DNA of 64,000 nucleotides. Source: Verrucomicrobiia bacterium. Its GTDB lineage: Bacteria > Verrucomicrobiota > Verrucomicrobiia > Limisphaerales > UBA11358. The notes under the pieces were generated by a model. That model was not told the DNA's origin, searched no databases, and worked only from the letters and a program-made list of their open reading frames with translations. The translations under genes were made by a program, and so were the position numbers. The stretch is taken from NCBI GenBank assembly GCA_036510395.1, contig DATCDZ010000152.1, positions 4,325-68,324 on the forward strand, in the 5' to 3' direction. The number at the start of each line of letters is the position of its first letter. Position 1 is the first letter of the stretch. Of the stretch, positions 7,717-51,263 are shown in pieces.

Positions 7717-7750
7717 TCGCCACCAGTTTAGGCCAGCCGATGGCGGTTGC

Positions 7751-7795: not shown

Positions 7796-7815
7796 ACGCG
7801 ATAGCGTTTTTACCT

Positions 7816-8301: not shown

Positions 8302-8332
8302 GAGTGCGTCACCGGATAGGTTTGAATCACGC

Positions 8333-8408
8333 GGCGTTTAGTCTGTCCGGTTTCCGAGAGCCGCAGGAAAGCCGAACAGTCTAAACGCCGTTGCCGCATA
8401 TTGTGGAT
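8333..8408 (+). other. Candidate oriT core: imperfect hairpin followed by a nic-like GCATATTGTGGAT
   Basis: GGCGTTTAGTCTGT (8333-8346) pairs with ACAGTCTAAACGCC (8376-8389) at 13/14 positions. GCATATTGTGGAT lies 6 nt downstream (8396-8408). As I recall, the R388/TrwC nic region is GGTGCGTATTGTCT/AT just 3' of a hairpin. The resemblance is weak. Confidence 0.3.
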
Positions 8409-8464
8409 TGTGTTTCAGAGCGATTCTGAATTCAAAAATTCAGGCAGGCTCGCCGATGGGTTAC

Positions 8465-8943
8465 GGGAAAGGATGGGGCAAGCGGTGACTGAATTCTGCC
8501 GGAAATCCAAGCCAAAAGCCTTTTTCATTTTGTTCCAAAATGGAACGAAGCTGCCCAGGCAATCTGGAAAAATACTGCCAATGGTGACATTCGTTTTTGC
8601 AAAGTTTGCAGGAGCGGAGCCGGTTGTTCCGCGAGAATGTCAGCCGAAAAAATAAACCAACGTGACGCATGAAAAATAAATCCGAAAAATGGCGGCAGAC
8701 TGGCCGATGGTTTTTGGGGAAAGGACGGAGCCATGAACGGCCAAATTCCGCCGGGAATGAATGCCGCAAGTGCTTTTCACTTTGTTTCATTTTGAAACAA
8801 TTACCACTGCCTGTTCTGCCAGAATGGTTCCATGAATTTATATTTCGACCAAGTTGCGGGAAAGGATTGGGTCAGGCGGTCGTTGAATTCCGCCGTGAAT
8901 CCAGACCGGAAAAAAAATTCATTTTGTTCATGGGGTGAACAAA
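8465..8943 (+). repeat. Three dispersed ~85-nt U-repeats (8465-8546, 8717-8800, 8858-8943), each ending in a hairpin
   Basis: Shared skeleton: GGGAAAGGA..GG...AATTC.GCCG.GAAT...TTTCA.TTTGTT-hairpin. The terminal hairpins are GTTCC-aaaat-GGAAC, (TT)GTTTC-atttt-GAAAC(AA) and (TTT)GTTCA-tgggg-TGAAC(AAA). Confidence 0.8.
8608..8710 (+). repeat. V-repeat copy 1 (paralogue of the leader and first codons of the 9183 gene)
   Basis: GCAGGAGCGGAGCCGGTTGTTCCGCGAGAATGTCAGCCGAAAAAATAAACC..GTGACGCATGAAAAATAAA...CTGGCCGATGG aligns with 9117-9222. It contains the hairpin GCGGA-n9-TCCGC followed by a GAGAAT -10-like hexamer. Confidence 0.75.
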
Positions 8944-9116
8944 GCGGCTTCGCCAATCCGATAAGATGCCGCCAAATAACAGCCATGAAAAATGACAGCC
9001 AAAAAAATCATTGTGGCAAAAGTGGTGGCTTCATCCTGTGTGTTTTCCGCACTGGATCGCCCGCAAACTCTGCCAAAGTGGGAGCCGTTGGGAAAATTCG
9101 AGTTGTGCAATGGGCT

Positions 9117-9222
9117 GCACAAGCGGAGCCGGAATTTCCGCTAGAATGTCTGCCGGAAACATAAATAAACCGTAGGTGACGTATGAATAATGAAGCGCCA
9201 AACAACCTCGCTGGCCGGATGG
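9117..9222 (+). repeat. V-repeat copy 2 = probable promoter/leader and 5' end of the 9183 gene
   Basis: GCACAAGCGGAGCCGGAATTTCCGCTAGAATGTCTGCCGGAAACATAAATAAACC..GTGACGTATGAATAATGAA...CTGGCCGGATGG. It has the same GCGGA-n9-TCCGC hairpin and a TAGAAT hexamer. Confidence 0.75.
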
Positions 9223-9605
9223 AAAAAGAGATTCGCGTCAAGCCTGGAAAAAATAAAGAAGCAGCAGAACAGCGAGCCAGTGCCGTTTATGTGCTCAACA
9301 ACGAACTCAAGGCGATCTTGAATCTGAACCGGCCACCGGCGCGTTTGAACACGGCGCAGACCGCCGCCTACCTCGGCTTCAAACCGCATGACATCCCGGT
9401 GCTGGCCGCGCGGGGATTCCTCAAGCCGTTGGGCGACCCGATGCCCAACAGCGATAAATACTATGCGCGGGCAAGGGTGCTGGAACGGTTGGACGATGAG
9501 GAATGGCTGTCACTGGCAACAGCGGCCTTGAGCCAGCATTGGCAGAAGAAAAACGCCAGCAAAACCAAAAAGCGGAATGGTCATGCCCGGCCAGTTAAAA
9601 AATGA
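9183..9605 (+). CDS. Helix-turn-helix (excisionase/MerR-like) protein, putative relaxosome accessory factor
   Basis: LNTAQTAAYLGFKPHDIPVLAARGFLKPLG resembles excisionase-family HTH_17 proteins. It lies immediately upstream of the relaxase on the same strand and has a basic C-terminal tail. Confidence 0.6.
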   Translation: MNNEAPNNLAGRMEKEIRVKPGKNKEAAEQRASAVYVLNNELKAILNLNRPPARLNTAQTAAYLGFKPHDIPVLAARGFLKPLGDPMPNSDKYYARARVLERLDDEEWLSLATAALSQHWQKKNASKTKKRNGHARPVKK

Positions 9606-9630
9606 ACTATTCGGTTTAACCACGACCAAC

Positions 9631-9649
9631 TCGCCCACTACCCGCTAAC
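9631..9649 (+). promoter_or_regulatory. Element-specific conserved box upstream of the relaxase gene
   Basis: TCGCCCACTACCCGCTAAC ends 33 nt before ATG 9683. It has the same orientation relative to its gene as the copies at 7751 and 14060. A degenerate upstream half-site is TTAACCACGACC. Confidence 0.55.
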
Positions 9650-9682
9650 GCGGGAAATGCGTTTTGATTTACGCTGGCGGCC

Positions 9683-12649
9683 ATGCTTGCACCGAAAGCC
9701 CAATACAACCCGGTTGACGCCAAAAAGTATTTCAAGGAACACCTGGCGGTCGGCGATTATTATGCCGAGGGGCAGACCGTTCCCGGCCAATGGATCGGCA
9801 AGGACGCGGAAGATTTGGGCTTGTCCGGCGTAACCACCACCGATGAGTTTGTCCGGCTCTGCGACAATCTCCATCCGCAAACCGGCGAACGGCTGACACT
9901 CCGGCAAAAAACCACGCGGATTGAAAAGGGGATTGATGGCGAAGAACGGCAAGCCGCCAATCGCCGGGTTTTTTACGATTTCACTTTTTCCCCGCCCAAA
10001 TCGGTTTCCATTGCCGCGCTGGTCGGCAACGACGCTCGGATTGTCGAGGCGCATGAGCAGGCCGTGACGGTGGCCATGCACCAGTTGCAAACCTTCGCGG
10101 CAACGCGCGTGCGGAAAAACGATGAATGCACGGACCGGCATACAGGCAACCTCGTGGCCGCGATGTTCCGGCATGACACCTCGCGCGCTTTAGACCCGCA
10201 TCTGCATACGCATTGCATCGTGTTCAACGCCACGTTTGACGCGGTGGAAAAGCAATGGAAGGCATTGCAGAACCATGAAATGTTCGCCGCGCAAAAATTT
10301 GTCGAGAATGTTTATTACCATGAACTCACGCGCGAAATGGTGAAGTGCGGCTATCAGATTGAAAACAAACCGCGCGGCGATTTTGAAATCAAGGGCGTCG
10401 CGTCGGAACTGATTGACAGGTTTTCCAAGCGGCACCGGGAGATTGACCGGAAAACCAGGGAACTGCTGGCGCGTGAACCGGAAAAGGCGGGCGACAACAT
10501 TGCGGCGATTCGGGAGAACATCGCGCACAAGGACCGGCCACGGAAAATCCGGGACATCGGTTTGGAAAAATTGCAAACGCTGTGGGACGGCCAGATGACA
10601 GCGGGCGAAAGGGCTTCGCTGGATGGGCTGACGGTGAAGCCGTCCGTCGCGCCCGTTTCCAGCGAGAAGATTTGCGAGCAGGCCGTGACGTGGGCGGAGC
10701 AACACCTGTTTGAACGTCATTCCATCGTCCATGAGCATGAACTGTGGCGGCACGCGCTGGAACGCGTCAGAGGGCAGGACGTTTTACTGGCGGACATTCA
10801 GGCCGTCACTCAAAAACGCGGCTATCTGCACTTCGACGAGCATCCCGGCAAGGTTTCCACGCGGGAGCATCTTGAACGTGAAATGGAAATTGTCCAGAAG
10901 GCCAAAGAGGGGATTGGCGAATGTCATCCGCTGGTCTGGCAACCGAAGCCCTTCAATCCCATGTTGGATGGGGAACAGCGCGAAGCCCTCGCCGCGCTGG
11001 TTTCCAATCGTAACCGGGTCGCGGTCTTTCGTGGCGGTGCCGGCACGGGCAAAAGTTTCGTGCTGCGCGAGCTGGTCGGGCAAATCCGCGACGGCGGGCG
11101 CGGCGTAGTCGTCCTCGCGCCGCAACGCCAGCAAGTGCTGGACATGGAACGGGACGGCTTTCCGTCGCCGCTGACGGTTGCCAGTTTTCTGCAAAAGAAA
11201 GAACTCCAAGAGGGAACGGTGGTGATCGTGGACGAGGCCGGGCAGATTGGGGGCAAGCCGATGTTGGAACTGCTCCGGCTGGTTTCTGAACGCAATGCGC
11301 GGCTGATTTTGTCGGGGGACACGCGCCAGCATGGGGCGGTTGAGGCGGGGGACGCGCTGCGGGCGATTGAAAAACATTCCGGCGTCTCGCCAGTGGAATT
11401 GACCAACATCCGCCGCCAGAATCCGGCGCTGGCGAAGTCAATCGAGGAGCGCAAGCATATCAAGGAATACCGTCAGGCCGTCGAGGCAGCGCGTGACGGC
11501 AAGTTCGCGGAATCGTTTGCACGGCTGGACAAATTGAAAGCGATTGAGTCCTGCACGCTGGCCGACAAGCATGAAAAGCTGACGGCGCGTTATCTGCAAC
11601 TGGTGAAAGATCATCAGTCCACCGTGGTCGTCTCGCAAAGCTGGAATGAGATTCACCAGGTCAACGACGCGATTCGTGTTGCGCTTAAAAATGAAAAGCT
11701 CGTCGGCGAAGCGGAAACCACGGTCACGGCATTTCAGCCGGTGGATTTGACGGAAGCGCAAAAGCGCGATGTCCGTTCTTATGATGCCAATACGGTGCTG
11801 GTGTTCAATCGTGACGTGCGCGGGTTCAAGGCCGGTGAATCGGCGCGGTTGAAATTGATTACCGACACGCATTTGCTGGTGGAAACGGACACGCGCATCG
11901 TCCCCATTTCCTTCAAGCAGTTGGACAAGCTGACGGCCTGCCAGCGCAAGGAATTGGCTTTGGCCGCTGGCGACAAGCTGCAACTCAAGGCGAATGGCCG
12001 CAGCGTGGAAAACCGCAAGCTGGTCAACGGCGAACTGGTCACGGTCAAGGCGGTCCAGCCTGACGGCCGCATTGCACTGGCGGATGGCAGGGTCTTGGAT
12101 AAAAACTTCCGGCAGTTCGTCCGGGGCTACGCCATCACGTCCTATGCGTCACAAGGCAAGTCGGTGGAACACGTTTTGTTTTCGGATTCGGCGGCGAAGG
12201 CCGCGACGAACCAGCAGCAATGGTATGTCACGATTTCGCGCGGCAAAAAGGGGATTCATATTTTCACCACGGACAAGGAGCAGTTGCGGGAGAACATCAC
12301 GCGCAGCGGGGATCGCCCATCGGTGGTGGATGTGCTGATGGCACATTACCGGAAACATGATTCGTTTTTTCGCATGATTGAACGGAGTTGGGGAACGCGG
12401 CTGGCGCTCACCATGACCAACAGCAAACGCGCCAGAGAATTTCGCGCGCTGCGCCAGCGGCAAAACCAAAGTCAGGCGCAAGCGCAAACTGAAACGATCA
12501 AGCAAACGGTTGAATCCAATGAGCCGCGCCAGCAACCCGTCCAGCCACCGGCGCAAAGCCACATGGCTGAAACCACGGAGCCGAAAATCAAGCCGCACCT
12601 GATTTTCCCGGAAGTCCCGAAAAAACAGTCGCGCGGTTACAGGCCGTGA
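9683..12649 (+). CDS. MobF-family relaxase (TrwC/TraI-like) fused to a RecD-like helicase
   Basis: N-terminus: DAKKYFKEHLAVGDYYAEG...GQWIGKDAEDLGLSG. Histidine triad: HDTSRALDPHLHTHCIVFNATF. Walker A: FRGGAGTGKS, with LILSGDTRQHGAVEAG. C-terminal helicase motif: ITSYASQGKSVEHVL...YVTISRGKKGIHIFT. Confidence 0.9.
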   Translation: MLAPKAQYNPVDAKKYFKEHLAVGDYYAEGQTVPGQWIGKDAEDLGLSGVTTTDEFVRLCDNLHPQTGERLTLRQKTTRIEKGIDGEERQAANRRVFYDFTFSPPKSVSIAALVGNDARIVEAHEQAVTVAMHQLQTFAATRVRKNDECTDRHTGNLVAAMFRHDTSRALDPHLHTHCIVFNATFDAVEKQWKALQNHEMFAAQKFVENVYYHELTREMVKCGYQIENKPRGDFEIKGVASELIDRFSKRHREIDRKTRELLAREPEKAGDNIAAIRENIAHKDRPRKIRDIGLEKLQTLWDGQMTAGERASLDGLTVKPSVAPVSSEKICEQAVTWAEQHLFERHSIVHEHELWRHALERVRGQDVLLADIQAVTQKRGYLHFDEHPGKVSTREHLEREMEIVQKAKEGIGECHPLVWQPKPFNPMLDGEQREALAALVSNRNRVAVFRGGAGTGKSFVLRELVGQIRDGGRGVVVLAPQRQQVLDMERDGFPSPLTVASFLQKKELQEGTVVIVDEAGQIGGKPMLELLRLVSERNARLILSGDTRQHGAVEAGDALRAIEKHSGVSPVELTNIRRQNPALAKSIEERKHIKEYRQAVEAARDGKFAESFARLDKLKAIESCTLADKHEKLTARYLQLVKDHQSTVVVSQSWNEIHQVNDAIRVALKNEKLVGEAETTVTAFQPVDLTEAQKRDVRSYDANTVLVFNRDVRGFKAGESARLKLITDTHLLVETDTRIVPISFKQLDKLTACQRKELALAAGDKLQLKANGRSVENRKLVNGELVTVKAVQPDGRIALADGRVLDKNFRQFVRGYAITSYASQGKSVEHVLFSDSAAKAATNQQQWYVTISRGKKGIHIFTTDKEQLRENITRSGDRPSVVDVLMAHYRKHDSFFRMIERSWGTRLALTMTNSKRAREFRALRQRQNQSQAQAQTETIKQTVESNEPRQQPVQPPAQSHMAETTEPKIKPHLIFPEVPKKQSRGYRP

Positions 12650-12656
12650 ACGGCGG

Positions 12657-12950
12657 TCAGTCCAGCGGGTAATCGTCGTGGTCATAATAGTCCGGCGGTT
12701 CCCACAACGGCGGGGCAAACGGTGGTGGTGGTGGCGTTCCCGGCAATTGAATGAAAATCGCTGGCCGGACGTGGGACATGGGTTTTCCTCTCTTTGGTCG
12801 CAATGCGCCGCATAATACCCACACCAAAAGAGCCAGCAAAAGATAGATGGCTCCGATGAGAAAATAGAGCGCATGGTCGTGAACGAATCCGTCAAGGTGT
12901 TTCAATCCCGACGTTTCCAGTTCGAGTGCCTTAATTTGCCAAGGTTGCAT
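12657..12950 (-). CDS. Small membrane protein with a Pro-rich acidic tail (hypothetical)
   Basis: Preferred start is ATG 12950, preceded by GGAGGA (12955-12960) directly after the integrase stop. TM segment: YFLIGAIYLLLALLVWVLCGAL. Tail: PPPPPFAPPLWEPPDYYDHDDYPLD. The track start at 13007 would overlap the integrase. Confidence 0.5.
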   Translation of the reverse strand: MQPWQIKALELETSGLKHLDGFVHDHALYFLIGAIYLLLALLVWVLCGALRPKRGKPMSHVRPAIFIQLPGTPPPPPFAPPLWEPPDYYDHDDYPLD

Positions 12951-12960
12951 GGTGTCCTCC

Positions 12961-14034
12961 TTATGCGGCAACGGCTTTCGCCGCTGGTTCGGGGTTGTGG
13001 CTTCCAATAATCACCTTCTGTTGCCGCTCGTATTCGCTCAAGGAAGGCATTTCCACCGGCGCTTTGCGGGAATAGGCCCGCGTCATGGCCTTGCTGTTGT
13101 GGCCAAGATTCACCTGGGCATACCGTTCGGGATAGCCCGCCGTTTTTGCCCGTTCTGCCCACGCGTAACGGTAGCTGTGCAGCGAGACGCCTTTGATGCC
13201 AAGTCCATCGCAGCGTTGTTTGAACTCCGTGGCGCGGTCACCAGAGCGCACGGTTCGCATATATGGAAACAAGGGGCCGCTCCCCGGCAAGTCGCGCAGG
13301 ATTTCCGCCATGTCTTCATCAAAACGCATGATGGCAATCGAGCCGGTCTTCTGGCGCGCATAGCTGATGACGTGGTGTTCCCAATCAACGTCCTCGGCGT
13401 TCAAGCCCGCCAGATCGGATTGCGATGCGCCCAAGTGCCACGCCAGTTTGTAGAACGCCTTGCGTTCGGGATTGTTCTCGCGGGCGACGATGGCCAGATG
13501 TTCCGCCAGCGTGATGCCGCGCTTCTCTTTGAACTCGACGGCGGGCCACTGGCGTTTCGGCACCAGCGGCCACGGCAGCCAGTTCATGTCCACGCAGAAA
13601 TTGTGCAACCGCCGGAGATAAACATTCGTCGAGACGGTTCCCATTTGCAGGACTTTCAGAATCGCTTCGCCCTTGCTTTCGATGATGACCTGCGGCAAGA
13701 GCATCGCCAGTGCCTTGTCCTTCGCGGCGGTTTTCCAGCGATGTTGATTCGCTCCCTGCTTGGTGCCAATCAACGACTCAATGGCGTTCTGCCATGTCCG
13801 CGTGGTCAAGCCCGTGTCCGAACCGGCCAGATACGCCTTGGCGATTTGCAGGTTAAGAACGGGCTGGCGTTCGGAGTTGTTCTTGGCCGCGACAACCTGC
13901 TTGGCATCGTCCTCATTGGCCGTGCCGAGACTGGTGCGCTTGCCGGTGCTGGTGTCCACGCAATAAAACTTATTGCCCCGGATACCACGACGAATTAAGC
14001 GATAACGTGTTTTCATAGTATTACGCAATCGCAA
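12961..14034 (-). CDS. int: Tyrosine recombinase / phage-type integrase
   Basis: C-terminal catalytic region: GVSLHSYRYAWAERA...NLGHNSKAMTRAYSR. The likely true start is ATG 14016 (MKTRYRLIRRG), since 14034 is a TTG. It lies 155 nt from the tRNA-Cys 3' end. Confidence 0.9.
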   Translation of the reverse strand: MRLRNTMKTRYRLIRRGIRGNKFYCVDTSTGKRTSLGTANEDDAKQVVAAKNNSERQPVLNLQIAKAYLAGSDTGLTTRTWQNAIESLIGTKQGANQHRWKTAAKDKALAMLLPQVIIESKGEAILKVLQMGTVSTNVYLRRLHNFCVDMNWLPWPLVPKRQWPAVEFKEKRGITLAEHLAIVARENNPERKAFYKLAWHLGASQSDLAGLNAEDVDWEHHVISYARQKTGSIAIMRFDEDMAEILRDLPGSGPLFPYMRTVRSGDRATEFKQRCDGLGIKGVSLHSYRYAWAERAKTAGYPERYAQVNLGHNSKAMTRAYSRKAPVEMPSLSEYERQQKVIIGSHNPEPAAKAVAA

Positions 14035-14059
14035 GAATAACTGAAGCCGGTTCCGCAGA

Positions 14060-14082
14060 GTTAGCGAGTAGTGGGCGGGTTA
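14060..14082 (-). promoter_or_regulatory. Element-specific conserved box upstream of the integrase
   Basis: GTTAGCGAGTAGTGGGCGGGTTA is identical over 23 nt to 7751-7773. In the gene direction it is TAACCCGCCCACTACTCGCTAAC, ending 43 nt before ATG 14016. Confidence 0.55.
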
Positions 14083-14188
14083 GTGCCGGTTACGCTAGAT
14101 TCTAACGGAGTAGATAAACTGGTGTCCGTTCTGGTGTCCTTTGACACCCTCGCACCTCTTAAACCATTGCTGCAATAACAGTTAGGAA

Positions 14189-14263
14189 TGGAGGCGGGAG
14201 TCGGAATCGAACCGACGAATGCAGCTTTTGCAGAGCCGTGCCTTACCACTTGGCTACCCCGCC
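14189..14263 (-). tRNA. tRNA-Cys (anticodon GCA), CCA encoded
   Basis: The reverse complement GGCGGGGTAGCCAAGTGGTAAGGCACGGCTCTGCAAAAGCTGCATTCGTCGGTTCGATTCCGACTCCCGCCTCCA folds by hand into a cloverleaf. It has a 7-bp acceptor stem, anticodon loop CUGCAAA and T-arm GTCGG-TTCGATT-CCGAC. Confidence 0.93.
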
Positions 14264-14328
14264 ACAGGGATTGTGAGTTTAATTTTCTTTCGCGTCCGAA
14301 TCAAGCTAAGTTTCGGCTCGACCACTTC

Positions 14329-15456
14329 TCAACCGCCAGAACCCAGTTCATGCCGCCGCCGCCAAAGTTCCTGCGGCTTGATGATGCCGCACGGCGTAAT
14401 AATTCCGGTGATCAATTCAGCCGGCGTCACGTCGAAACCCGGATTGCACGCCCTGCTCGATGGATTTGCCACACGCACATACCGGCGTAAATTCTGACTT
14501 CGGACTTTGGACTTCGGACTTTCAACAATGCCCCACGCGCCGAGAACTTCGCTTTCGCTTCGCTCTTCAATTGGAATGTCGAAACCCTGTTTTAGATTCC
14601 AGTCAATTGTTGAAAGCGGGATGGCTACATAAAACGGAATTTTGTGCCGCGCGGCCAGAACCGCCTTTGTATAAGTGCCGATTTTGTTGGTGACTTCGCC
14701 GGTGCGGCCGAGCGTGCGGTCGCTGCCGACGATGACCAAGTCAATCTCACCGCGTTGCATCAAATGTCCGGCGGCGTTGTCAGCAATGATTTGATGTGAA
14801 ATTTTTTGCTGCGCGAGTTCCCAAGCCGTCAAAGTTGCGCCTTGCGAACGCGGACGGGTTTCGTCGCAGAAGACATGGAACTTTTTGCCCTGCGCCTGCG
14901 CGGCATACATCGGCGCGATGGCGGTGCCGATGTCCACGAACGCCAGCCAGCCGGCGTTGCAATGCGTGAGAATCTTCATGCCGTTGCGGATCAGCTTCGC
15001 GCCGTGTTTGCCAATTTCTTCGCAATGACGGACATCTTCGTTCGCAAATTCCTCGGCGGCGGCAAGCGCGAGCGATTTCTTTTCTTCAACGGTTTTGCCG
15101 CGCGCCATTTCGCGGCGAACGTCGTTCATTGCGTTCACGGGATCAACCGCCGTCGGCCGTGCGGCTTTCAAAGTTTGAAAAACAATTTCGACGTGCGCTG
15201 AAAATTTCTTCAAATCATTTCCGTGAAAAGCCAGCGCGCCCTGCGCGAGGCCGTAAGCCGCCGTCGCGCCGATCGCACCTGCGCCGCGCACAATCATGTC
15301 GCGGATTGCCGCCGCCGTTTCCTTGAAACTTTTCGCGGGGACAATTTTGAATTCGTGCGGCAGCAATCTTTGTTCGATGAACAAAACGGAATTGCGCGCC
15401 CGGTCAAATGTGACAGTGCGGAAATGCTGCGTGCGTCCGTGGACGGTGATGTTCAT
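14329..15456 (-). CDS. mtnA: S-methyl-5-thioribose-1-phosphate isomerase (eIF-2B alpha/beta/delta family)
   Basis: FIEQRLLPHEF...IRDMIVRGAGAIGATAAYG...VGSDRTLGRTGEVTNKIGTY...NPGFDVTPAELITGIIT. Confidence 0.85.
   Translation of the reverse strand: MNITVHGRTQHFRTVTFDRARNSVLFIEQRLLPHEFKIVPAKSFKETAAAIRDMIVRGAGAIGATAAYGLAQGALAFHGNDLKKFSAHVEIVFQTLKAARPTAVDPVNAMNDVRREMARGKTVEEKKSLALAAAEEFANEDVRHCEEIGKHGAKLIRNGMKILTHCNAGWLAFVDIGTAIAPMYAAQAQGKKFHVFCDETRPRSQGATLTAWELAQQKISHQIIADNAAGHLMQRGEIDLVIVGSDRTLGRTGEVTNKIGTYTKAVLAARHKIPFYVAIPLSTIDWNLKQGFDIPIEERSESEVLGAWGIVESPKSKVRSQNLRRYVRVANPSSRACNPGFDVTPAELITGIITPCGIIKPQELWRRRHELGSGG
14496..14522. repeat. Heptanucleotide tandem array (AGTCCRA type) in frame inside mtnA
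   Basis: GACTTCGGACTTTGGACTTCGGACTTT is translated as ESPKSKVRSQ on the gene strand. The same heptamer family forms the intergenic hairpin at 29542-29629. Confidence 0.7.
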
Positions 15457-20121: not shown

Positions 20122-21003
20122 GTGCAAGATTTGATCGCCAAAGCCGGAACGCTCCTCGAAGCGCTGCCGTATATCCAAAAGTTCAGCGGCGCGACCTTCG
20201 TCGTCAAATACGGCGGCAGTTTCATGGACTCGCCCGACGCCGAAATCCGCAACGGCGTCGCGCGCGACATCGTGTTTCTCGAAGCCGTCGAAATCAATCC
20301 CGTCATCGTCCACGGCGGCGGCAAGGCGATCACGCGCGCGATGGAACAGGCCGGTTTAATCGCGAATTTTATTCAAGGCCAGCGCGTCACCGACGAAGCC
20401 ACGGCAAAAATAGTGGACGACGTTTTGTCGCGCGAAATCAATCCAGACATCGTCGCAACAATCAATTCACTCGGCGGCGCGGCCGTCGGATTTTCCGGCG
20501 CGGACATTTTCAAATGCAAAAAATTGCTGCTTCACGACAGGGATAATCCCAGCAAAAAAATTGACATCGGCTACGTAGGCGAAGTCATCGAAGTCAACGT
20601 CGCGCCGCTCAAGGAATCCATCTGGTGCGGCCACACGCCCGTCATCAGCCCGACCGCGCGCGGCGAGGACGGAAAGATTTACAACTGCAACGCCGACATC
20701 GCCGCCGCGATGTGCGCGATCGCGCTCAACGCGAAACGGCTCGTTTTCTTGAGCGACGTTCCAGGACTGATGCGCGACCCGAAAAATGCTTCCACCGTCA
20801 TCGCGCATTTGCAAACAAATGAAGTGGACGGTCTGAAAAAATCCGGCGTGATTGACAAGGGCATGATTCCGAAAGTGGACAGCGCCGTCGCCGCCATCAA
20901 ATCCGGCGTGGAAAAAGTTTCCTTCGTAGACGGTTGCGTGCCGCATTCCGTCCTGCTGGAGATTTTCACGGACAAGGGAAACGGGACGGAAATTGTTTTG
21001 TGA
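20122..21003 (+). CDS. argB: Acetylglutamate kinase
   Basis: LPYIQKFSGATFVVKYGGSFM...VIVHGGGKAI...YNCNADIAAA. Confidence 0.9.
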   Translation: MQDLIAKAGTLLEALPYIQKFSGATFVVKYGGSFMDSPDAEIRNGVARDIVFLEAVEINPVIVHGGGKAITRAMEQAGLIANFIQGQRVTDEATAKIVDDVLSREINPDIVATINSLGGAAVGFSGADIFKCKKLLLHDRDNPSKKIDIGYVGEVIEVNVAPLKESIWCGHTPVISPTARGEDGKIYNCNADIAAAMCAIALNAKRLVFLSDVPGLMRDPKNASTVIAHLQTNEVDGLKKSGVIDKGMIPKVDSAVAAIKSGVEKVSFVDGCVPHSVLLEIFTDKGNGTEIVL

Positions 21004-21024
21004 TTTGCGATTTACGATTTACGA
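21004..21024. repeat. Heptanucleotide tandem array TTTRCGA x3 (argB-argD spacer)
   Basis: TTTGCGA TTTACGA TTTACGA. Confidence 0.7.
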
Positions 21025-21040
21025 TTCACCCGAATTGCAG

Positions 21041-22387
21041 ATGAAAGAAATTTTTCCAACACCGCCGCCGCTCGTGCAAAACCAGTTCGAGTCCGTGCGC
21101 GAATTGTTTTCCAAAAACGTCGTGCCCAGCTACGGCCGTTTTGATTTGGCGTTGAGCCACGGCAACGGCAGTTACGTCTTTGATGTCGCGGGCAAACGTT
21201 ATCTCGACCTCGGCGGCGGCATCGCCGTGAATTGTCTCGGCCACGCGCATCCGGCGATTTTGGAAGCGCTGAACGACCAAGCCAAAAAACTCATTCACGT
21301 TTCCAATTTGTATTACACCCAGCCGCAGGGAAAACTCGCGGCGGAAATCGTAAAACGCATCGGCGCGGGCAAAGTTTTTTTCTGCAACAGCGGCGCGGAG
21401 GCGAACGAAGGGCTTTTCAAAGCCGCGCGCAAATTCGGCCACGACGAGGGACGGTTTGAAATCCTGACCGCGACAAATTCTTTTCACGGACGGACGCTCG
21501 GCGGCATCGCCGCGACCGGCCAGGACAAGGTCAAAAAAGGTTTTGAGCCGATGACGCCGGGTTTCCGACATATTCCGTTCAACGATCTGGCAGCGGCGCG
21601 CAACGCGATTTCGCCCGCGACGGTTGCGATCATGATCGAAGGCGTGCAGGGCGAGGGCGGCGTCACGCCCGCGGCGCCGGAGTATTTGCTCGGCCTGCGC
21701 GCATTGTGCGACGAGAAAAAACTGCTGCTGTTCATGGACGCTGTGCAAGACGGACATTATCGCACTGGAAAATTTCAGAGCTTCCAGCGGATTTTGGAAA
21801 ATGTAGGACAGGCGTCGCGCCTGTCTCAAACTTCAAATAAAGAAAACGGAGACAGGCGCGACGCCTGTCCTACGGAATTTCTGCCAGACGGCCTTTCGAT
21901 GGCCAAGTCGCTCGGCGGCGGATTTCCGATGGGCGCGTTCTGGATGCGTGAACCGTTTCAAGATTTGCTCGGCGCGGGAACGCATGGCACGACTTACGGC
22001 GGCACGCCGCTCGCCTGCGCTGTTGCGCTGAAAATTCTTTCGGTCATCGAATCGGAAAAACTCGATGAACAGGCGCGCCAGCTCGGCGAGTGGATTTTGA
22101 GCGAATTGAAGCGGTTCGCGGAAATTTATCCGACCGTCGTCAAAAACGCGCGCGGCGTGGGCTTAATGCTCGGACTTGAACTGCAAGAAAAAGAAAAAAT
22201 TCCCAAATTTACCGCCAGCGAAAAATCGGCGGCCATCCAATTTACGAACCGTTTGCACGCGCTCGGCGTCATGGTGATTCCCGCAGGCAATCAAACGATC
22301 CGTTTGCTGCCGCCGCTGAATTTGAAGCCGCAGGAAGCGGGCGAAGGCATTTCCAAAATCGAGGAAGTCGTCAAATCGCTCGCGTGA
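21041..22387 (+). CDS. argD: Acetylornithine aminotransferase (class-III PLP enzyme) carrying an in-frame palindromic insert
   Basis: YGRFDLALSHGNGSYVFDVAGKRYLDLGGGIAVNCLGHAHP...FFCNSGAEANE...FHGRTLGG...DAVQ...AKSLGGGFPMGA. Start chosen at MKEIF. Confidence 0.88.
   Translation: MKEIFPTPPPLVQNQFESVRELFSKNVVPSYGRFDLALSHGNGSYVFDVAGKRYLDLGGGIAVNCLGHAHPAILEALNDQAKKLIHVSNLYYTQPQGKLAAEIVKRIGAGKVFFCNSGAEANEGLFKAARKFGHDEGRFEILTATNSFHGRTLGGIAATGQDKVKKGFEPMTPGFRHIPFNDLAAARNAISPATVAIMIEGVQGEGGVTPAAPEYLLGLRALCDEKKLLLFMDAVQDGHYRTGKFQSFQRILENVGQASRLSQTSNKENGDRRDACPTEFLPDGLSMAKSLGGGFPMGAFWMREPFQDLLGAGTHGTTYGGTPLACAVALKILSVIESEKLDEQARQLGEWILSELKRFAEIYPTVVKNARGVGLMLGLELQEKEKIPKFTASEKSAAIQFTNRLHALGVMVIPAGNQTIRLLPPLNLKPQEAGEGISKIEEVVKSLA
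21803..21873. repeat. Nested palindromic element (GTAGGA...TCCTAC family) inside argD
   Basis: Perfect 25-nt arms GTAGGACAGGCGTCGCGCCTGTCTC / GAGACAGGCGCGACGCCTGTCCTAC around a 21-nt loop. Each arm is itself a hairpin, GACAGGCG-TCG-CGCCTGTC. Confidence 0.9.
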
Positions 22388-27988: not shown

Positions 27989-28939
27989 TCAACCTTTCAC
28001 CCGCAACAATTTCAACGCCGCCAGAAAATCCTCCGGCAGCGGCGCTTCAAACGTCATCAATTTTTTCCGGCGCGGATGAAAGAACGACAGTTCGCGCGCG
28101 TGCAGCATCACGCGCGGCGCGGCGTAATTCGTCAGTTCCTTCAGCCGCGCATTTTGCCGCGCGCCGTAGGTGTCGTCGCCCACGAGCGGATGGCCGATGA
28201 ACTGGAAATGCACGCGGACTTGATGCGTGCGCCCGGTGTGTATCTGCGCCTCCATCAACGTCGCCGCGTAAAGCCGTTCGAGAATCCTGTAGCTCGTGTG
28301 CGCGGCGCGGCCGGTGCTGTCGCCGCTCACGGCCATGCGTTTGCGGTGCGTGGGATGCCGCGCGATGGCGGCGTGAATTTCGGCGGTGGCGCGGCCCGGT
28401 TCGCCGCAGACGAGCGCGTGGTAAATCTTTTTTACTTCGCGCGCCGCGAATTGTTCCGAGAGCGCGAGGTGCGTCTCGTCGTTCTTGGCGACGACGAGGC
28501 AGCCGCTGGTTTCCTTGTCGAGCCGGTGGACGATGCCGGGCCGCGCCACGCCGCCGATGCCGCTCAACGAGCCTTTGCAATGATGCAGCAGCGCGTTGAC
28601 GAGCGTGTGTTCCTCGTGCCCGGCGGCGGGATGCACGACGAGTCCGGCGGGTTTGTTGACGACGAGCAGCGTTTTGTCCTCGAACAGAATGTCGAGCGGA
28701 ATTTTTTCCGGCTGCGCCTGGGCGGGCTTGGCTTCCGGCCAATGGACTTCAATTTTTTCGCTCGCGTGCGGATGATGCGTAGGCTTGACGATTTCGCCGT
28801 TGACGCGGATGTGGCCTTCTTCAATCAGCCGGTGCAGCGCGCCGCGCGAGGCGGTGGGAAATTTCTCGCAAAGGAATTTGTCGAGCCGCTCTTTCGGAAG
28901 CGATTTTTCGACGGTAAAATTTTCAGTTCGATTTTTCAT
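27989..28939 (-). CDS. rluD: 23S rRNA pseudouridine synthase RluD-type (S4 domain + RluA core)
   Basis: RLDKFL...NKPAGLVVHP...HRLDKETSGCLVVAK...GRTHQVRVH. Confidence 0.85.
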   Translation of the reverse strand: MKNRTENFTVEKSLPKERLDKFLCEKFPTASRGALHRLIEEGHIRVNGEIVKPTHHPHASEKIEVHWPEAKPAQAQPEKIPLDILFEDKTLLVVNKPAGLVVHPAAGHEEHTLVNALLHHCKGSLSGIGGVARPGIVHRLDKETSGCLVVAKNDETHLALSEQFAAREVKKIYHALVCGEPGRATAEIHAAIARHPTHRKRMAVSGDSTGRAAHTSYRILERLYAATLMEAQIHTGRTHQVRVHFQFIGHPLVGDDTYGARQNARLKELTNYAAPRVMLHARELSFFHPRRKKLMTFEAPLPEDFLAALKLLRVKG

Positions 28940-29023
28940 CCGCAGATTACACAGATTTTCGCAGATTAAATTTATGACTTGTTTTTAATCTGCGTTCATC
29001 GACGAAATCTGCGGAAAAAGTTT

Positions 29024-29539
29024 TCATTTGGATTCTGCGGATTTCGGCGCGTGTTCATTTTTCCAGGTGATGAGGAAAATCAATCCGACGCCGGTGCAAA
29101 TGGCGCTGTCGGCGATGTTGAACGCGGGGAATCCGATTTCACCGCCGCCGCGCCGGTGCATATAAAAATAAATGAAATCCACGACGGCATGGCGTCCGGG
29201 CAAAAGCCGGTCGGTGAGATTTCCAGCGATGCCGCCGAAGATGAGTCCGAACGCGATCTGCCCCGACAGCGTGTGCGAATCGAAATGGCGCCGCGTGAGA
29301 AACAGCGCGACGAGCGCGAACAGGGCGACGAGCGCGAGCGCGCCGTTGTTGCCCCGAAACAGGCTCCACGCCGCGCCGGTGTTGCCCCAGTGGACGAATT
29401 TGAAGAACCCTGGAATGATGATTTTTTCCTGAAATTCGGGCAGCGTTTCCAGAACGAGCCATTTGGTGAACTGGTCGAGCGCGAGTATGAACAGCGCGAG
29501 CACGGCGATGCGGCGGTTTGATTTCGGGAAAACAGTCAT
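29024..29539 (-). CDS. lspA: Lipoprotein signal peptidase II
   Basis: Start chosen at MTVFPKSNRRIAVLALFILALDQFTKWLV. Motifs include NTGAAWS and FNIADSAI. The longer track ORF (to 29764) reads through the heptamer hairpin. Confidence 0.85.
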   Translation of the reverse strand: MTVFPKSNRRIAVLALFILALDQFTKWLVLETLPEFQEKIIIPGFFKFVHWGNTGAAWSLFRGNNGALALVALFALVALFLTRRHFDSHTLSGQIAFGLIFGGIAGNLTDRLLPGRHAVVDFIYFYMHRRGGGEIGFPAFNIADSAICTGVGLIFLITWKNEHAPKSAESK

Positions 29540-29541
29540 TG

Positions 29542-29629
29542 AGTCCAAAGTCCGAAGTCCGAAGTCCAAAGTCAAGCCAGCCGCGCCGTTGAATTTAGGC
29601 TTTGGACTTTGGGCCTTGGACTTTAGACT
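29542..29629. repeat. Long hairpin built of heptanucleotide arrays (AGTCCRA x5 facing its complement)
   Basis: AGTCCAA AGTCCGA AGTCCGA AGTCCAA AGTCAAG ... loop ... GGCTTTGGACTTTGGGCCTTGGACTTTAGACT, between the divergent lspA and NYN genes. Confidence 0.8.
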
Positions 29630-29635
29630 GCGTTC

Positions 29636-30106
29636 ATGGCGCTCGTGCGAATCCTTGTTGACGGCTACAGCCTGTTGCACAACTGGCCGGAACTGGCGGA
29701 AGGTGCGCCGCGCCACTCCGCGCTCGCGCGGGACGAACTGGTGCAAATCCTGACGCAATATCACGATGCGACGGGCGAACCGGTCACAATTTTTTTCGAC
29801 GGTTCGGGCGCGCCGCCCAACACGCCGAAAAGCGAATCGAGCCGCGACGTGGAGGTTTTATTTTCGCGCGCGGGACAAACGGCGGACGACATGATCGAGC
29901 GCGCGGCGCATCGTTTTCAAAGTTACGGCGAAGTCCTCGTCGTGACGGACGACCATGCGGAGCGCGACATGGTAAGCGGGTTTGGCGGGTCGGTGGCGAG
30001 CTGCGCGAATTTCATCTGCATGATCGGCGGGGCGCTGGCGGAACTGAAGGACGAGTTGAAGAACCACAACCGCGCGGAGCGGAACCGTTTTAACCGGTCG
30101 CGCTGA
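29636..30106 (+). CDS. YacP/Rae1-like NYN-domain ribonuclease
   Basis: ILVDGYSLLHNWPEL...VTIFFDG...VEVLFSRAGQTADDMIE...VLVVTDDHAE parallels B. subtilis YacP. Confidence 0.8.
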   Translation: MALVRILVDGYSLLHNWPELAEGAPRHSALARDELVQILTQYHDATGEPVTIFFDGSGAPPNTPKSESSRDVEVLFSRAGQTADDMIERAAHRFQSYGEVLVVTDDHAERDMVSGFGGSVASCANFICMIGGALAELKDELKNHNRAERNRFNRSR

Positions 30107-45126: not shown

Positions 45127-45429
45127 TTAATCGCCCAGCAATTTTTTCAAATGCTCGCGCGCAGCGGTCTCGCGTTTGTTCGTCTCCGATTTTGGCGGCC
45201 AGTTGCGGCGGATGAAATCAAAATACTCGCAGAAATTTCCAGCGGCCTTTTCCAGAACCGGCTCCGCGCGACGCTCGCGGCATTGCTGCGCGATGCGCGG
45301 ATCGTAATGCGTGCAATTCAGGCAGACGCGCAGATCCGCGCGGCATTTCATGCACGTCTCGCCGCGCCCCGGCTGGCCGCCCAGCGTCCAGGGTTCGCCG
45401 CAATTGTGGCAATGACGGGTCATTTGCAT
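45127..45429 (-). CDS. Small Cys-rich zinc-ribbon protein
   Basis: CHNCGEPW...CMKCRADLRVCLNCTHY...QCRE...FCEYF. Confidence 0.55.
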   Translation of the reverse strand: MQMTRHCHNCGEPWTLGGQPGRGETCMKCRADLRVCLNCTHYDPRIAQQCRERRAEPVLEKAAGNFCEYFDFIRRNWPPKSETNKRETAAREHLKKLLGD

Positions 45430-45456
45430 TTACGATTTGTGATTTACGATTTACGA
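45423..45456. repeat. Heptanucleotide tandem array TTTRYGA (about 5 units)
   Basis: TTTGCA TTTACGA TTTGTGA TTTACGA TTTACGA. It overlaps the start codon region of 45127-45429. Confidence 0.7.
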
Positions 45457-45492
45457 TTGTGCCTGGAAAAGCAATCTCATCGTGCATTAAGA

Positions 45493-46065: not shown

Positions 46066-46117
46066 ATTTTATCCGTGTTCATCCGTGCCCATCTGTGGTT
46101 AAATTCTTCAGGTAACT

Positions 46118-49381: not shown

Positions 49382-50050
49382 ATGGCTGAATACGACGCGA
49401 CCGAGTTTATTGACACCGATTTTCAAGCGCACAAGTCGCCGTCACCTTTTGCGCCGACCAACGACCCGCTCCGCGCGCCCACGCGCGAGGACGTGGACCG
49501 CAAAGTTGTCGAGGCGCAGCAAAAACTCGCCGAGCTGAAGCGCGCGCAGGAAGATTTGGAACGCGAACGCGCCTCGCTCGAGGAATTGCGCCGCCGCCAA
49601 TTGGAATTTCAAAACGGCCGCCAGGAAATGGTTCACAACCTCACGCGCGGACTCGGTTTGCTCGAAGAAGCCGAATTCAATGCGCGCCGCGATTCCGAGC
49701 AAATGATTAAAACGCTCGCCGATTTCCGTGGTGCGCTTGAAAAAATCCAAAATGTCCGCGACGAAACGTGGACGAAGGAAAATTTCCAGATGGAATTGAC
49801 CCGCGCGCTGACTGTTGTTGAAAACGCGCGCATGGAATGGAATTCCGCGCGCCTGAAACTGCCCGCGCTCGCCGGCGAAACCGCGCAGAAAAAATCCGAG
49901 GCCGAATCCGCGCCGCAGCCGGCCGTTTCACCGTTCGCCAATTTAAGTTTCGGCGAACTCTGCAAAATCGGCCTTGCAATGACATGGCCGCTCTTAATCG
50001 TGGCGTTGGTTGCTCTCGGCATATTTATCGCAATCCTGTTACGCCGGTGA
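49382..50050 (+). CDS. Hypothetical coiled-coil protein with C-terminal TM anchor
   Basis: QQKLAELKRAQEDLERERASLEELRRRQ...; C-terminus IGLAMTWPLLIVALVALGIFIAILL. Confidence 0.55.
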   Translation: MAEYDATEFIDTDFQAHKSPSPFAPTNDPLRAPTREDVDRKVVEAQQKLAELKRAQEDLERERASLEELRRRQLEFQNGRQEMVHNLTRGLGLLEEAEFNARRDSEQMIKTLADFRGALEKIQNVRDETWTKENFQMELTRALTVVENARMEWNSARLKLPALAGETAQKKSEAESAPQPAVSPFANLSFGELCKIGLAMTWPLLIVALVALGIFIAILLRR

Positions 50051-50052
50051 AA

Positions 50053-50154
50053 TTTTTGATTTACAATTTATGATTTATGATTTGGCAAAAGTCGCCCGCG
50101 CTTGGAAAAAATCATCAATCGTAAATCATCAATCGTAAATCATCAATCGTAAAT
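50053..50154. repeat. Long hairpin of heptamer arrays (TTTNNRA x5 facing 3 perfect 14-nt units AATCATCAATCGTA)
   Basis: Left arm TTTTTGA TTTACAA TTTATGA TTTATGA TTTGGCA. The right arm is 50110-50151, three exact 14-mers that read TTTACGA/TTGATGA on the other strand. Confidence 0.85.
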
Positions 50155-50164
50155 TGTTTGTCGT

Positions 50165-50716
50165 ATGGCGTTCGCGAAAAAAAAGGTGAATCCGGCTGAC
50201 TTGATTTCCGCCCGCGCCCGCGCGCTCAACGACCAGATTTCCTCGCTCGAATCCGAGATCAAAAAACTAGACGGCCAGTTGCAAGGCTCGTCCGCGAAAC
50301 CAAAACTGCGCTCGACGACAATTCCCCACGGCCCGACCGTTTCGCGAAAAATTGAAAATCCGCCGTCGGTGGGGCGAGCGTCCTCGCGAGCCGAGAAACC
50401 AATTTCTCACGAGCCGGTTTTTGAAGAGGTGAACGCAAAATCATTCCAGCCTGAAACTGACCCGCGCGACCGCTACAACCATCTCGGCGTTCGCAAATAT
50501 GACCTGCCCGCGCTGTGGCATCGCCTGTGCAATTATTTCCGCGGCCCGACAACGAGCAACCCGCGCCTCGTGAGTTATCTCGCCGCCGGCGGAGTCCACG
50601 GCCTGCGCCCGATGCGCTACGAAAAACGGATTGCGCGCAGGCGGTTCATTGTTCTTGCAGCCGCATTGTTTCTGCTGTTGCTTGGCACGCTGTTGGTCTG
50701 GCTTCACGGCCATTGA
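50165..50716 (+). CDS. Hypothetical protein with N-terminal coiled coil and C-terminal TM anchor
   Basis: LNDQISSLESEIKKLDGQLQ...; RRFIVLAAALFLLLLGTLLVWL. Confidence 0.5.
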   Translation: MAFAKKKVNPADLISARARALNDQISSLESEIKKLDGQLQGSSAKPKLRSTTIPHGPTVSRKIENPPSVGRASSRAEKPISHEPVFEEVNAKSFQPETDPRDRYNHLGVRKYDLPALWHRLCNYFRGPTTSNPRLVSYLAAGGVHGLRPMRYEKRIARRRFIVLAAALFLLLLGTLLVWLHGH

Positions 50717-50729
50717 ATCGTTGAATCAC

Positions 50730-51263
50730 ATGAAAAATAAACTTGTCGAACTGCCGATCTCCACGCCAGACGGAATTTTCCTCGCGCACTATTCCGAAAA
50801 AGGTCTGGTCGAAATTGATTGGCCAAACACGAATCGTAGGAGACGAAGTAACGAGTCTCGAATTTCTTCAGCTTCCAGCGAATTAGTTAGAGACTCCTCA
50901 CGTCGTCTCCTACAAATTAAAAAGTGGCATCGCGCGACTGAAACGGCGTTGAAAAAAATTCTTGCCGGGAAAAAATCGAAGCTGCCCCCGCTCGACTGGA
51001 AGGGCAAAACGGATTTTCAAAAATCCGTCTGGCGGCAGATGCTGAAAATTCCCGCCGGCAGGACGAAAAGCTACGGCGAAATCGCAACGGCAATTGGCAA
51101 TCCCAAGGCCGTCCGCGCGGTGGGTGGCGCGTGCGGGGCGAATCCGGTTCCGGTTTTGGTTCCGTGCCATCGCGTTCTGGCCGCGAACAAAAAACTCGGC
51201 GGCTTCGGCGGCGGATTGGATTGGAAACGCAGTTTGCTCAAGCGCGAAGGAATAAAAATGTAA
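50730..51263 (+). CDS. ogt: Methylated-DNA-protein-cysteine methyltransferase carrying an in-frame palindromic insert
   Basis: TDFQKSVWRQMLKIPAGRTKSYGEIA...VLVPCHRVL...GGFGGGLDWK. Start chosen at MKNKLVEL. Confidence 0.85.
   Translation: MKNKLVELPISTPDGIFLAHYSEKGLVEIDWPNTNRRRRSNESRISSASSELVRDSSRRLLQIKKWHRATETALKKILAGKKSKLPPLDWKGKTDFQKSVWRQMLKIPAGRTKSYGEIATAIGNPKAVRAVGGACGANPVPVLVPCHRVLAANKKLGGFGGGLDWKRSLLKREGIKM
50836..50913. repeat. Palindromic element (GTAGGA...TCCTAC family) inside ogt, 78 nt
   Basis: GTAGGAGACGAAGTAACGAGTCTC - 30-nt loop - GAGACTCCTCACGTCGTCTCCTAC, with arms 21/24 complementary. It shares the GTAGGA / GTCTC / GAGAC / TCCTAC landmarks with the argD element. Confidence 0.85.

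Follow-up and report, generated by a model that had tools for sequence, protein, structure and literature searches.

Here we analyse a family of short heptanucleotide tandem arrays in a 64,000-nucleotide stretch of DNA (called the window) from a Verrucomicrobiia bacterium of the Limisphaerales (UBA11358; GenBank assembly GCA_036510395.1, contig DATCDZ010000152.1, positions 4,325 to 68,324 of the forward strand). The focal element lies at positions 29542-29629 of the window, between the divergent genes lspA and yacP, and consists of two arrays of 7-nt units that face each other across a short loop; the hairpin takes up nearly all of the 96-nt spacer. Further arrays are located in the argB/argD spacer, in the divergent spacer upstream of nadD, in the pyrR leader, between the genes 49382-50050 and 50165-50716 (hairpin C), and inside the reading frame of mtnA. 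The coordinates are collected in Table 1. The gene calls for the window combine Pfam matches, public calls on identical contigs and a crude caller of our own.

Table 1. Genes, arrays, hairpin arms and inverted pairs of the window; units and copy numbers in the rows headed "period-7 array" are those of Tandem Repeats Finder.
Feature	Coordinates	Strand	Unit or motif	Copies or pairing	Context
lspA	29024-29539	minus
yacP (YacP-like NYN gene)	29636-30106				ATG at 29636
lspA/yacP hairpin, left arm	29542-29573		AGTCCRA	4.6	begins 2 nt from lspA start codon
lspA/yacP hairpin, loop	29574-29599		AAGTCAAGCCAGCCGCG		contains this conserved centre
lspA/yacP hairpin, right arm	29600-29629		CTTTGGA	4.3	ends TTTAGACT, 6 nt ahead of yacP ATG
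Inverted pair, lspA/yacP	29542-29571 / 29600-29629			30-nt arms, 83% complementary	28 nt between arms
Hairpin C, left arm	50052-50083	plus	TTTAYRA, imperfect heptamers		1 nt past stop of gene 49382-50050
Hairpin C, right arm (perfect 14-mer array, Tandem Repeats Finder)	50109-50154	plus	AAATCATCAATCGT	3.3	10 nt ahead of ATG at 50165
Inverted pair, hairpin C	50052-50082 / 50117-50147			31-nt arms, 84% complementary
pyrR-leader hairpin, left arm	52760-52800	plus	CTCCAAS
pyrR-leader hairpin, right arm	52832-52872	plus	TGGAKGT		then CTTCTTATTTTTCC; pyrR ATG at 52885
Inverted pair, pyrR leader	52760-52800 / 52832-52872			41-nt arms, 76% complementary
mtnA array	14492-14521	minus	AGTCCRA	4.3	in mtnA ORF, encodes ...ESPKSKVRSQ...
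argB/argD array	20997-21026	plus	GATTTRC		fills 37-nt argB/argD spacer (argB stop 21003, argD ATG 21041)
nadD-spacer array	45428-45458		ATTTRYG		69-nt divergent spacer, 98-aa gene / nadD
Period-7 array	14492-14521		TTCGGAC	4.3
Period-7 array	21002-21026		GATTTAC	3.6
Period-7 array	29542-29573		AGTCCAA	4.6
Period-7 array	29600-29629		CTTTGGA	4.3
Period-7 array	45428-45458		ATTTACG	4.4
Period-7 array	50052-50083		ATTTATG	4.6
Period-7 array	52763-52788		CTCCAAG	3.7
Period-7 array	52844-52868		TGGATGT	3.6
ATCYGYG inverted pair	28939-29015	minus	triple ATCYGYG, 9-10-nt spacing		fills lspA-stop to rluD-start spacer
Inverted pair, 10-nt family	28939-28970 / 28984-29015			32-nt arms, 78% complementary
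Single triple ATCYGYG element	46068-46100	plus	triple ATCYGYG		ends GGTTAAAT, upstream of rsfS

Tandem Repeats Finder locates nine period-7 tandem arrays at six loci of the window, with 3.6-6.6 copies each and in the places read from the sequence beforehand, which bears out a sequence-only reading of this DNA that had claimed tandem 7-nt units at six or more loci. Our own autocorrelation scan returned 7 arrays with period 7 against 0-1 for each other period from 4 to 21, and 20 dinucleotide-preserving shuffles of the window gave a mean of 0.00 period-7 arrays. The earlier statement that the unit differs from locus to locus holds in part: the units are indeed variable, but GATTTAC-type units recur at four loci and AGTCCRA at two. 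It had also been stated that convergent, divergent and tandem gene pairs alike carry arrays. Divergent and co-directional spacers do so, as does one 5′ leader, but no array in the window is flanked by a convergent gene pair, and the array taken to be intergenic at 14496-14522 (14492-14521 in our analysis) sits in frame within the mtnA open reading frame (ORF), where it forms a coding loop.

Three of the six loci have paired inverted arrays that form long imperfect stems of 30-41 nt, as anticipated from the sequence, with predicted folding energies of -25 to -49 kcal/mol. The RNA fold of the focal hairpin (29538-29636) has a calculated energy of -48.3 kcal/mol with z -6.9 relative to shuffles, and that of the pyrR leader (52755-52884) -49.4 kcal/mol with z -5.4, while hairpin C (50048-50164) is a weaker case (-25.3 kcal/mol, z -2.6). 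The inverted pair of the 10-nt family, treated further below, gives -31.0 kcal/mol with z -6.1 (28935-29020). The unpaired arrays at 21002, 45428 and 46068 fold no better than shuffles. At Rfam gathering scores a tRNA-Cys is the sole match and nothing is returned for the hairpins; at E <= 1 they match eukaryotic miRNA precursor models only, that is, as generic hairpins. Scans for sigma-70 promoter and intrinsic-terminator consensus sequences around the hairpins gave nothing above shuffles.

Confinement of the arrays to the window had been named beforehand as grounds for rejecting the sequence-only reading, and is not the case. About 160 related contigs (1.9 Mb; about 2 Mb for blastn) were compared, and are referred to by L-numbers. 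They include a genome set of 1.26 Mb, taken from the surroundings of the PhoH orthologue of 80 species-representative genomes, and a metagenome set of 0.6 Mb in 80 contigs around yacP orthologues, which is partly ascertained since the yacP spacer guided its retrieval. The intergenic, partner and start-codon counts below leave out this spacer (86 arrays), and the array-length figures use all 141 arrays, the ascertained ones included. The nearest relatives of the window PhoH/PIN protein, with 96-68% identity, come from metagenome-assembled genomes (MAGs) labelled Verrucomicrobiia, Limisphaerales, Pedosphaera or subdivision 3. An MtnA identical to that of the window is filed at NCBI under Verrucomicrobiae bacterium. 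An excess of period 7 over other periods had been set as a test beforehand, and it is present in the relatives as in the window: period 7 is the commonest both in the genome set (42 arrays, versus 18 with period 9 and 14 with period 6) and in the metagenome set (92, versus 22 with period 9). The array density is 5.9 per 64 kb in the 14 nearest genomes versus 1.15 in the other 66.

At least 52 of the 86 arrays are intergenic, with ca 87% of the DNA called coding by a crude caller that over-calls coding. An inverted partner, defined by at least 13/16 matches within 150 nt, is found for 34 of the 86, about 40%, compared with 8 in a complement-only control. A start codon lies within 15 nt of 25 of 43 arrays, versus 13 expected under uniform placement, the gene starts being approximate. 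The unit families AAAGTCC, AAATCGT, AAACTTG and AACATYC recur across genomes, and the units lean towards A/T, with a GC content of 0.44 and with AAA or TTT in 41% of them. The array length has a median of 30 nt (interquartile range 25-32, maximum 60), and 75 of the 141 arrays have 4 units. As a side observation on the contigs themselves, L011, L030, L053, L054, L058, L069 and L083 encode a PhoH/PIN protein 74-87% identical to the verrucomicrobial one, some with the window gene order, and their public labels (Bifidobacteriaceae, Bifidobacterium, Klebsiella, Chitinophaga pinensis, Akkermansia muciniphila) look wrong.

The comparison shows that arrays of about four units arise, resize and vanish in steps of 7 or 14 nt. 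Unit-number polymorphism between strains, proposed earlier as a check, is found in the right arm of hairpin C, where the 14-mer is present in 2 copies in L084, L085 and L087, in 3 in the window and in 5 in L086, with identical flanks and an identical downstream protein. Over 20.5 kb, L087 differs from the window by 0 mismatches and a single indel, which is one 14-mer. Hairpin C as a whole is present in L129 and absent from 16 syntenic relatives (PhoH-anchored genome contigs); the 49382/50165 spacer measures 7-38 nt in 14 of these, including the closest, and is longer in the other two, where it contains no heptamer arrays. Nearby, the spacer after gene 50165-50716 holds a member (50836-50913) of a palindrome family of 63-78 nt, GTAGGAGACG...CGTCTCCTAC, which is found at the orthologous place in L005 (7679-7756), L014 (7614-7688) and L129 (7202-7264).

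A similar presence and absence is seen in front of pyrR. The 139-nt segment 52734-52872 is missing from three relatives with PyrR 91-93% identical (L171-L173), in which the attenuator T-tract is directly followed by the ATG, and in L174 this site is occupied by another hairpin made of short units. T-rich runs border the insertions on both sides in the window and in L174, L171-L173 being the empty sites. Upstream of the heptamer hairpin, positions 52634-52729 match the Rfam PyrR-binding site RF00515 with 41.7 bits, below the gathering score of 54, and the attenuator has a terminator and T-tract of its own at 52700-52733. An RF00515-like site with terminator and T-tract is also conserved in L054 and L171-L174, and 52634-52729 is likely a genuine verrucomicrobial pyr attenuator that falls below the family cut-off. 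Since the attenuator has its own terminator and T-tract, and since relatives keep it without the hairpin, the heptamer hairpin is an addition between attenuator and ATG and not a part of the attenuator. Public calls place the pyrR start at a TTG or ATG within the hairpin (52825/52828-53409; 193 aa, P0122), but it is the ATG at 52885 that is conserved as the start (52885-53409, 174 aa, P0121). Similar over-extended PyrR calls, of 193-197 aa, occur in several relatives.

The units are also homogenised, a change spreading to all copies of an array and in places to both arms. In mtnA, the array is part of a 17-18-aa loop insertion relative to solved MtnA structures. Among 120 verrucomicrobial homologues, 26 have a loop of 38 aa and 73 have one of 46-48 aa, and the long loops consist of 7-aa-period peptides, i.e. 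heptamer arrays read through three frames. The peptide is SPKSKVQ, NSKFKIQ, NPKSEIR, NPQSAIR, NLKSQIS, EKRKAES or KQMEDGR depending on the relative, and the arrays are of AGTCCAA, AATTCAA, AATCCGA, AATCCGC, AATCTCA, GAAAAGC or AGATGGA. Two loop forms are shorter by exactly 7 aa, which equals 3 units. The mtnA array holds its position while its unit drifts, and this fits evolution in situ. A complete heptamer hairpin is in addition found in frame in the C-terminal part of an ORF that is putatively priA, judged from its sequence motifs. It is present in L114 (1646-1720), L121 (11600-11676) and L129 (14420-14502) and is translated as ESTVHSPQSNVDRTDRGLKTVDF or ESKLQESKVQSPKSKDPARDTTLDF. In L129 the arms read AGTCCAA/TTGGACT, whereas L114 and L121 both have AGTCCAC/GTGGACT; the two arms have therefore changed together.

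Two further loci have single arrays. That between argB and argD has equal length in L089, L090 and L093. The array upstream of nadD (from 45493, plus strand) is shared with a conserved 98-aa gene (45127-45423, minus strand), and orthologous arrays precede the latter in L007, L012 and L014; the nadD/rsfS spacer contains different repeat hairpins in different species. Taken over all loci, the arrays sit where they are tolerated. Often they fill a short spacer, from the stop or start codon of one gene up to the start of the following gene; others are found in a single 5′ leader or, with the reading frame kept, within surface loops of proteins.

The focal hairpin has a longer history. Its left-arm array is identical in 3 other metagenomes, and about two dozen related contigs have ca 4.5 AGTCCRA units, the centre AAGTCAAGCCARCCGCG and ca 4 CTTTGGA units ending with TTTAGACT. 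The conserved centre listed in Table 1 is kept in 20 loci and, in about 2 Mb of related DNA, is found at lspA/yacP alone. Compared with L129, L131 and L134, the spacer is 88-90% identical, versus 53-61% at the 4-fold degenerate sites of yacP. Judged from these identities, the element appears to be old and under purifying selection. A TAnnnT hexamer ca 7 nt before the yacP ATG is kept in all clades, within the last unit where the hairpin is present, and is compatible with a leaderless yacP promoter. In sense orientation, GGACUUU precedes both lspA and yacP. Among the arrays there are hence recent, polymorphic ones as well as at least one that is both old and constrained. We also note that L120 and L121 contain a 3.1-kb insertion (2787-5876) with inverted ends (GGCAGTGTCCTAATTTGAAATT...) and several ORFs, whose position falls precisely within the lspA/yacP hairpin loop.

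In our judgement the arrays are probably heptanucleotide simple sequence repeats (SSRs), of the class that includes the short tandemly repeated repetitive (STRR) elements of cyanobacteria, and are characteristic of an uncultured Verrucomicrobiota clade of Limisphaerales/Pedosphaera type. STRR-type heptanucleotide repeats are themselves already known, and are documented here for a new lineage. The generator would be slipped-strand mispairing in a 7-nt register, and the inverted partners would owe their origin and continued complementarity to intrastrand template switching or, alternatively, to selection acting on the hairpin. Where the two arms are co-transcribed, as expected for rluD/lspA, 49382/50165 and the pyrR leader, the RNA would contain a long stem-loop through which the flanking cistrons could be modulated in their processing, stability or translation, with the unit number setting the stem length. 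At lspA/yacP, where each arm abuts one start codon, the arrays would most likely contribute to the promoter or leader of lspA as well as of yacP. A role of the hairpins as RNA stem-loops or leaders is proposed by analogy with the STRR hairpins of cyanobacteria.

It is important to point out that several observations weigh against this interpretation. Free slippage predicts neither the narrow peak of array lengths at about 30 nt nor the left arm at lspA/yacP holding to about 4 units across distant relatives. Polymorphism is seen at one array only, which is the sole perfect one, and the lspA/yacP, argB/argD, nadD and pyrR arrays are invariant in contigs of the same population. Regarding an RNA function, the two arms of the divergent lspA/yacP spacer need not share one transcript, the difference in fold energy between the strands has no consistent sign (-16 to +17 kcal/mol in the lspA/yacP hairpins of 60 relatives), and double compensatory changes are absent within the lspA/yacP clade (RNAalifold, 12 hairpin-bearing spacers, 32 pairs). 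Finally, the T-rich flanks of the pyrR-leader insertions could mean an insertion mechanism rather than growth in situ.

This last point leads to the scenario of miniature mobile hairpin elements of the MITE, REPIN or Correia type, in which the arrays are terminal inverted repeats and the elements insert into spacers and protein loops. We consider it unlikely. REP/REPIN, Correia and Rickettsia palindromic elements are small intergenic palindromes that can be co-transcribed; they are dispersed copies of one sequence, mobilised in trans, and the Rickettsia elements also insert in frame into protein-coding genes, which the occurrences in mtnA and priA recall. The presence of hairpins indeed differs between close relatives, the two unlike pre-pyrR hairpins of the window and L174 occupy one site with T-rich flanks resembling a target-site duplication, AAATT stands on both sides of hairpin C compared with an apparently empty site in L007, and these genomes do contain a true REPIN-like element, whose 25-nt arms are conserved. 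However, blastn of each hairpin against about 2 Mb gave no full-length paralogues. Unlike REP/REPIN and Correia elements, the heptamer hairpins share only array parts of 23-34 nt between non-orthologous loci, while every loop is locus-specific and the arms differ by locus. Length changes consist of whole units inside one arm, and the mtnA array stays in place as its unit drifts. The T-rich duplication can also be explained by selection, on a terminator U-tract and on the U-rich leader of a start codon, and the T-rich runs and AAATT alike may be functionally required or have seeded the array.

Another scenario, which we find improbable, is that the arrays are binding sites for a lineage-specific nucleic-acid-binding protein that contacts them in 7-nt steps and controls how the neighbouring gene is translated or transcribed; one may think of an RNA binder resembling S1, Csp or CsrA, of a nucleoid factor or of a transcription factor. 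The excess of arrays abutting start codons (25/43 versus 13 expected) argues for it, as do the sequence conservation of the lspA/yacP element, the presence of GGA or U-tracts in sense orientation in several units, and the near absence of Shine-Dalgarno motifs in the lineage (2/69 genes). The same proposal exists for TAACTGA repeats, and each heptamer is bound by one CspB protein (PMC4679880). On the other hand, since the units differ between loci and drift freely at one fixed locus, no single binding specificity fits. Arrays are moreover found past stop codons and within ORFs, and their orientation relative to the 98-aa gene varies among relatives.

One can also imagine a self-maintaining class of hairpins, for which a dedicated or RNA-coupled process makes the inverted partner, rewrites both arms, holds them at about 30 nt and allows their spread into spacers, leaders and protein loops, so that the hairpins would be a general control layer over leaders and intercistronic regions in a lineage nearly without Shine-Dalgarno sequences. 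If this were true, the compensatory replacement of units in priA and at lspA/yacP would find its explanation in such an arm-rewriting process, but we give the proposal little credence.

That the hairpins act as intrinsic transcription terminators or attenuator stems, a role suggested in the sequence-only reading, is very unlikely. In its favour, CUUCUUAUUUUUCC follows the pyrR-leader hairpin, which is located immediately downstream of the PyrR-binding site, and UUGUUUGU follows hairpin C. The focal hairpin, however, stands between divergent genes, with nothing to terminate and no U-tract, and the suggestion does not fit hairpins in divergent spacers. The consensus terminator scan reported none of the hairpins, a U-rich tail is present at the pyrR-leader hairpin only, single arrays do not fold, the pyr attenuator brings its own terminator, and close relatives lack the extra hairpin. 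Chance matches or assembly artefacts can be practically dismissed: although the window is from a metagenome-assembled genome and assemblers can collapse or expand short repeats, the 7 arrays compare with 0 in dinucleotide-preserving shuffles, are at most 70 nt long and thus below the k=141 suggested by ENA contig names (k141_...), are identical in independent JGI and ENA assemblies, and have orthologues in dozens of other MAGs.

The preferred assignment to heptanucleotide SSRs can be compared with the known systems. Like the cyanobacterial STRRs, the present repeats have a 7-nt unit, form short tandem arrays with several unit families per genome, lie in spacers and can form hairpins. Vioque is said to have described, in 1997, an STRR inside a structural RNA gene. 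STRR hairpins of 7-bp repeats between the co-transcribed genes hupS and hupL were proposed to affect transcript stability or translational coupling (PMC2670836). The STRR-like character proposed from the sequence thus stands with respect to the constant 7-nt period, the variable units and the frequent hairpins, but these are not STRRs in the strict sense: the host phylum is Verrucomicrobiota and not heterocystous cyanobacteria, neither strand of the window contains a dimer of the STRR1-3 units CCCCAGT, TTGGTCA and CAACAGT, and the arrays are of ca 4 units and at most 60 nt, with ca 40% inverted-paired and with in-frame coding arrays in mtnA and priA.

Heptamers are, according to Mrazek 2007 as cited in PMC4679880 and PMC4692102, the commonest long SSR class in bacteria and are attributed to polymerase slippage; long heptamer SSRs are described as phylogenetically scattered and mostly non-coding (Mrazek, Guo and Shah 2007, as cited in PMC4679880). 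The period-7 excess, the non-coding bias and, at one window locus, the length change by whole units are all observed here. In the tabulated scores of a 2014 survey (Huang and Mrazek), triple heptamers are the sole SSR class scoring positive in several phyla, with 0.5 for Verrucomicrobia and 2.0 for Planctomycetes. Apart from this weak over-representation in a survey table, our literature search found no description of heptamer arrays in Verrucomicrobia or Pedosphaera, in agreement with the earlier supposition that they had not been described for the lineage. The SSR surveys give genome-level statistics from 4 verrucomicrobial genera and, for this lineage, do not go into families of units, pairing into hairpins, polymorphism between strains or concerted evolution.

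Other heptamer systems share some of these properties. TAACTGA repeats of marine Beggiatoaceae, Cyanobacteria and Bacteroidetes occur in 2-6 copies, mostly intergenic and few nt from start codons, and a role in translation has been suggested (PMC4679880). That system uses one unit genome-wide in 169 direct sets and one inverted set, whereas many unit families and frequent inverted pairs are found here. In Nostoc, heptamer repeats close to start codons have likewise been linked to regulation. In H. influenzae hmw1A/hmw2A, transcribed (ATCTTTC)n repeats pair with a downstream arm to give a long imperfect 5′-UTR (untranslated region) hairpin with strain-variable unit number, which is an RNase III substrate and is needed for expression and for the change in repeat number (PMC12721329). 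The heptamer SSR hairpin and the variation in unit number between strains are common to both cases, while a role of RNase III in the present lineage would be an extrapolation. The hmw case concerns a single contingency locus, in a pathogen adapted to its host, with at least 11 units and a non-repetitive G-rich right arm; here, there are ca 4 units, both arms are arrays, and the flanking genes are of the housekeeping type (lspA, yacP, argB/argD, nadD, pyrR, mtnA). Neither TAACTGA nor ATCTTTC units were found. Finally, the GGGAATC arrays of Xanthomonas and the GGGGAYT arrays of Nostoc are intergenic and recur at identical gene pairs of related species, while varying extensively in length and sequence (PMC4692102), but their units are G-rich and form quadruplexes, whereas those described here are A/T-leaning and form Watson-Crick hairpins.

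The arrays with 9-10-nt spacing at 28940-29015 and 46068-46100 had been taken as related to the heptamers, and turn out to be a separate family. Each element contains precisely three ATCYGYG motifs, spaced at 9-11 nt and in most cases at 10 nt, and typically ends with GGTTAAA; the motif clusters of the window are at 28941-28966 (minus) and 46071-46097 (plus). In the fetched loci there are 29 clusters, as single elements or inverted pairs, and they are kept at the same spacers (lspA/rluD, nadD/rsfS) across relatives. The 46068-46100 element is conserved in L004, L005, L007, L008, L009, L015, L016 and L028. The family has no Rfam match.

Some further features of the window deserve mention. A perfect 25-nt inverted repeat, GTAGGACAGGCGTCGCGCCTGTCTC...GAGACAGGCGCGACGCCTGTCCTAC, is located in frame in argD (21041-22387) at 21803-21873. 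Its arms consist of GTAG plus a small palindrome and are REP-like, and the doublet resembles a REPIN; the argD orthologue of L093 aligns with gaps that add up to 21 positions, wherever they fall, and so come close to the insertion in size, and the same arms with another loop occur in another genome (L011, 2772-2847). The motifs GGAG, GAGG or AGGA are found at positions -20 to -4 of 2 of the 69 window genes, compared with 7% of random 17-mers, and Shine-Dalgarno sequences seem to be hardly used in the lineage. A TrwC-type relaxase/helicase gene (9683-12649) adjoins a gene-poor stretch with strong oriT-like inverted repeats (8225-8307, 8332-8390), and the tRNA-Cys gene (14189-14263) is near this region; 7700-14300 may be an integrated conjugative or mobilisable element.

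The arrays have practical consequences. They mislead gene callers, as shown by the pyrR start called in the hairpin and by ORFs extended through arrays, and they are strain-level markers in metagenomes. Heptanucleotide repeats are the commonest long SSRs of bacteria, yet their origin and function are unsettled after more than 30 years of work on STRRs. The lineage considered here is an independent, abundant and uncultured group of soil and peat. Because polymorphism, turnover, long persistence and concerted evolution occur together in this one lineage, mutational by-product can be separated from selected structure locus by locus.

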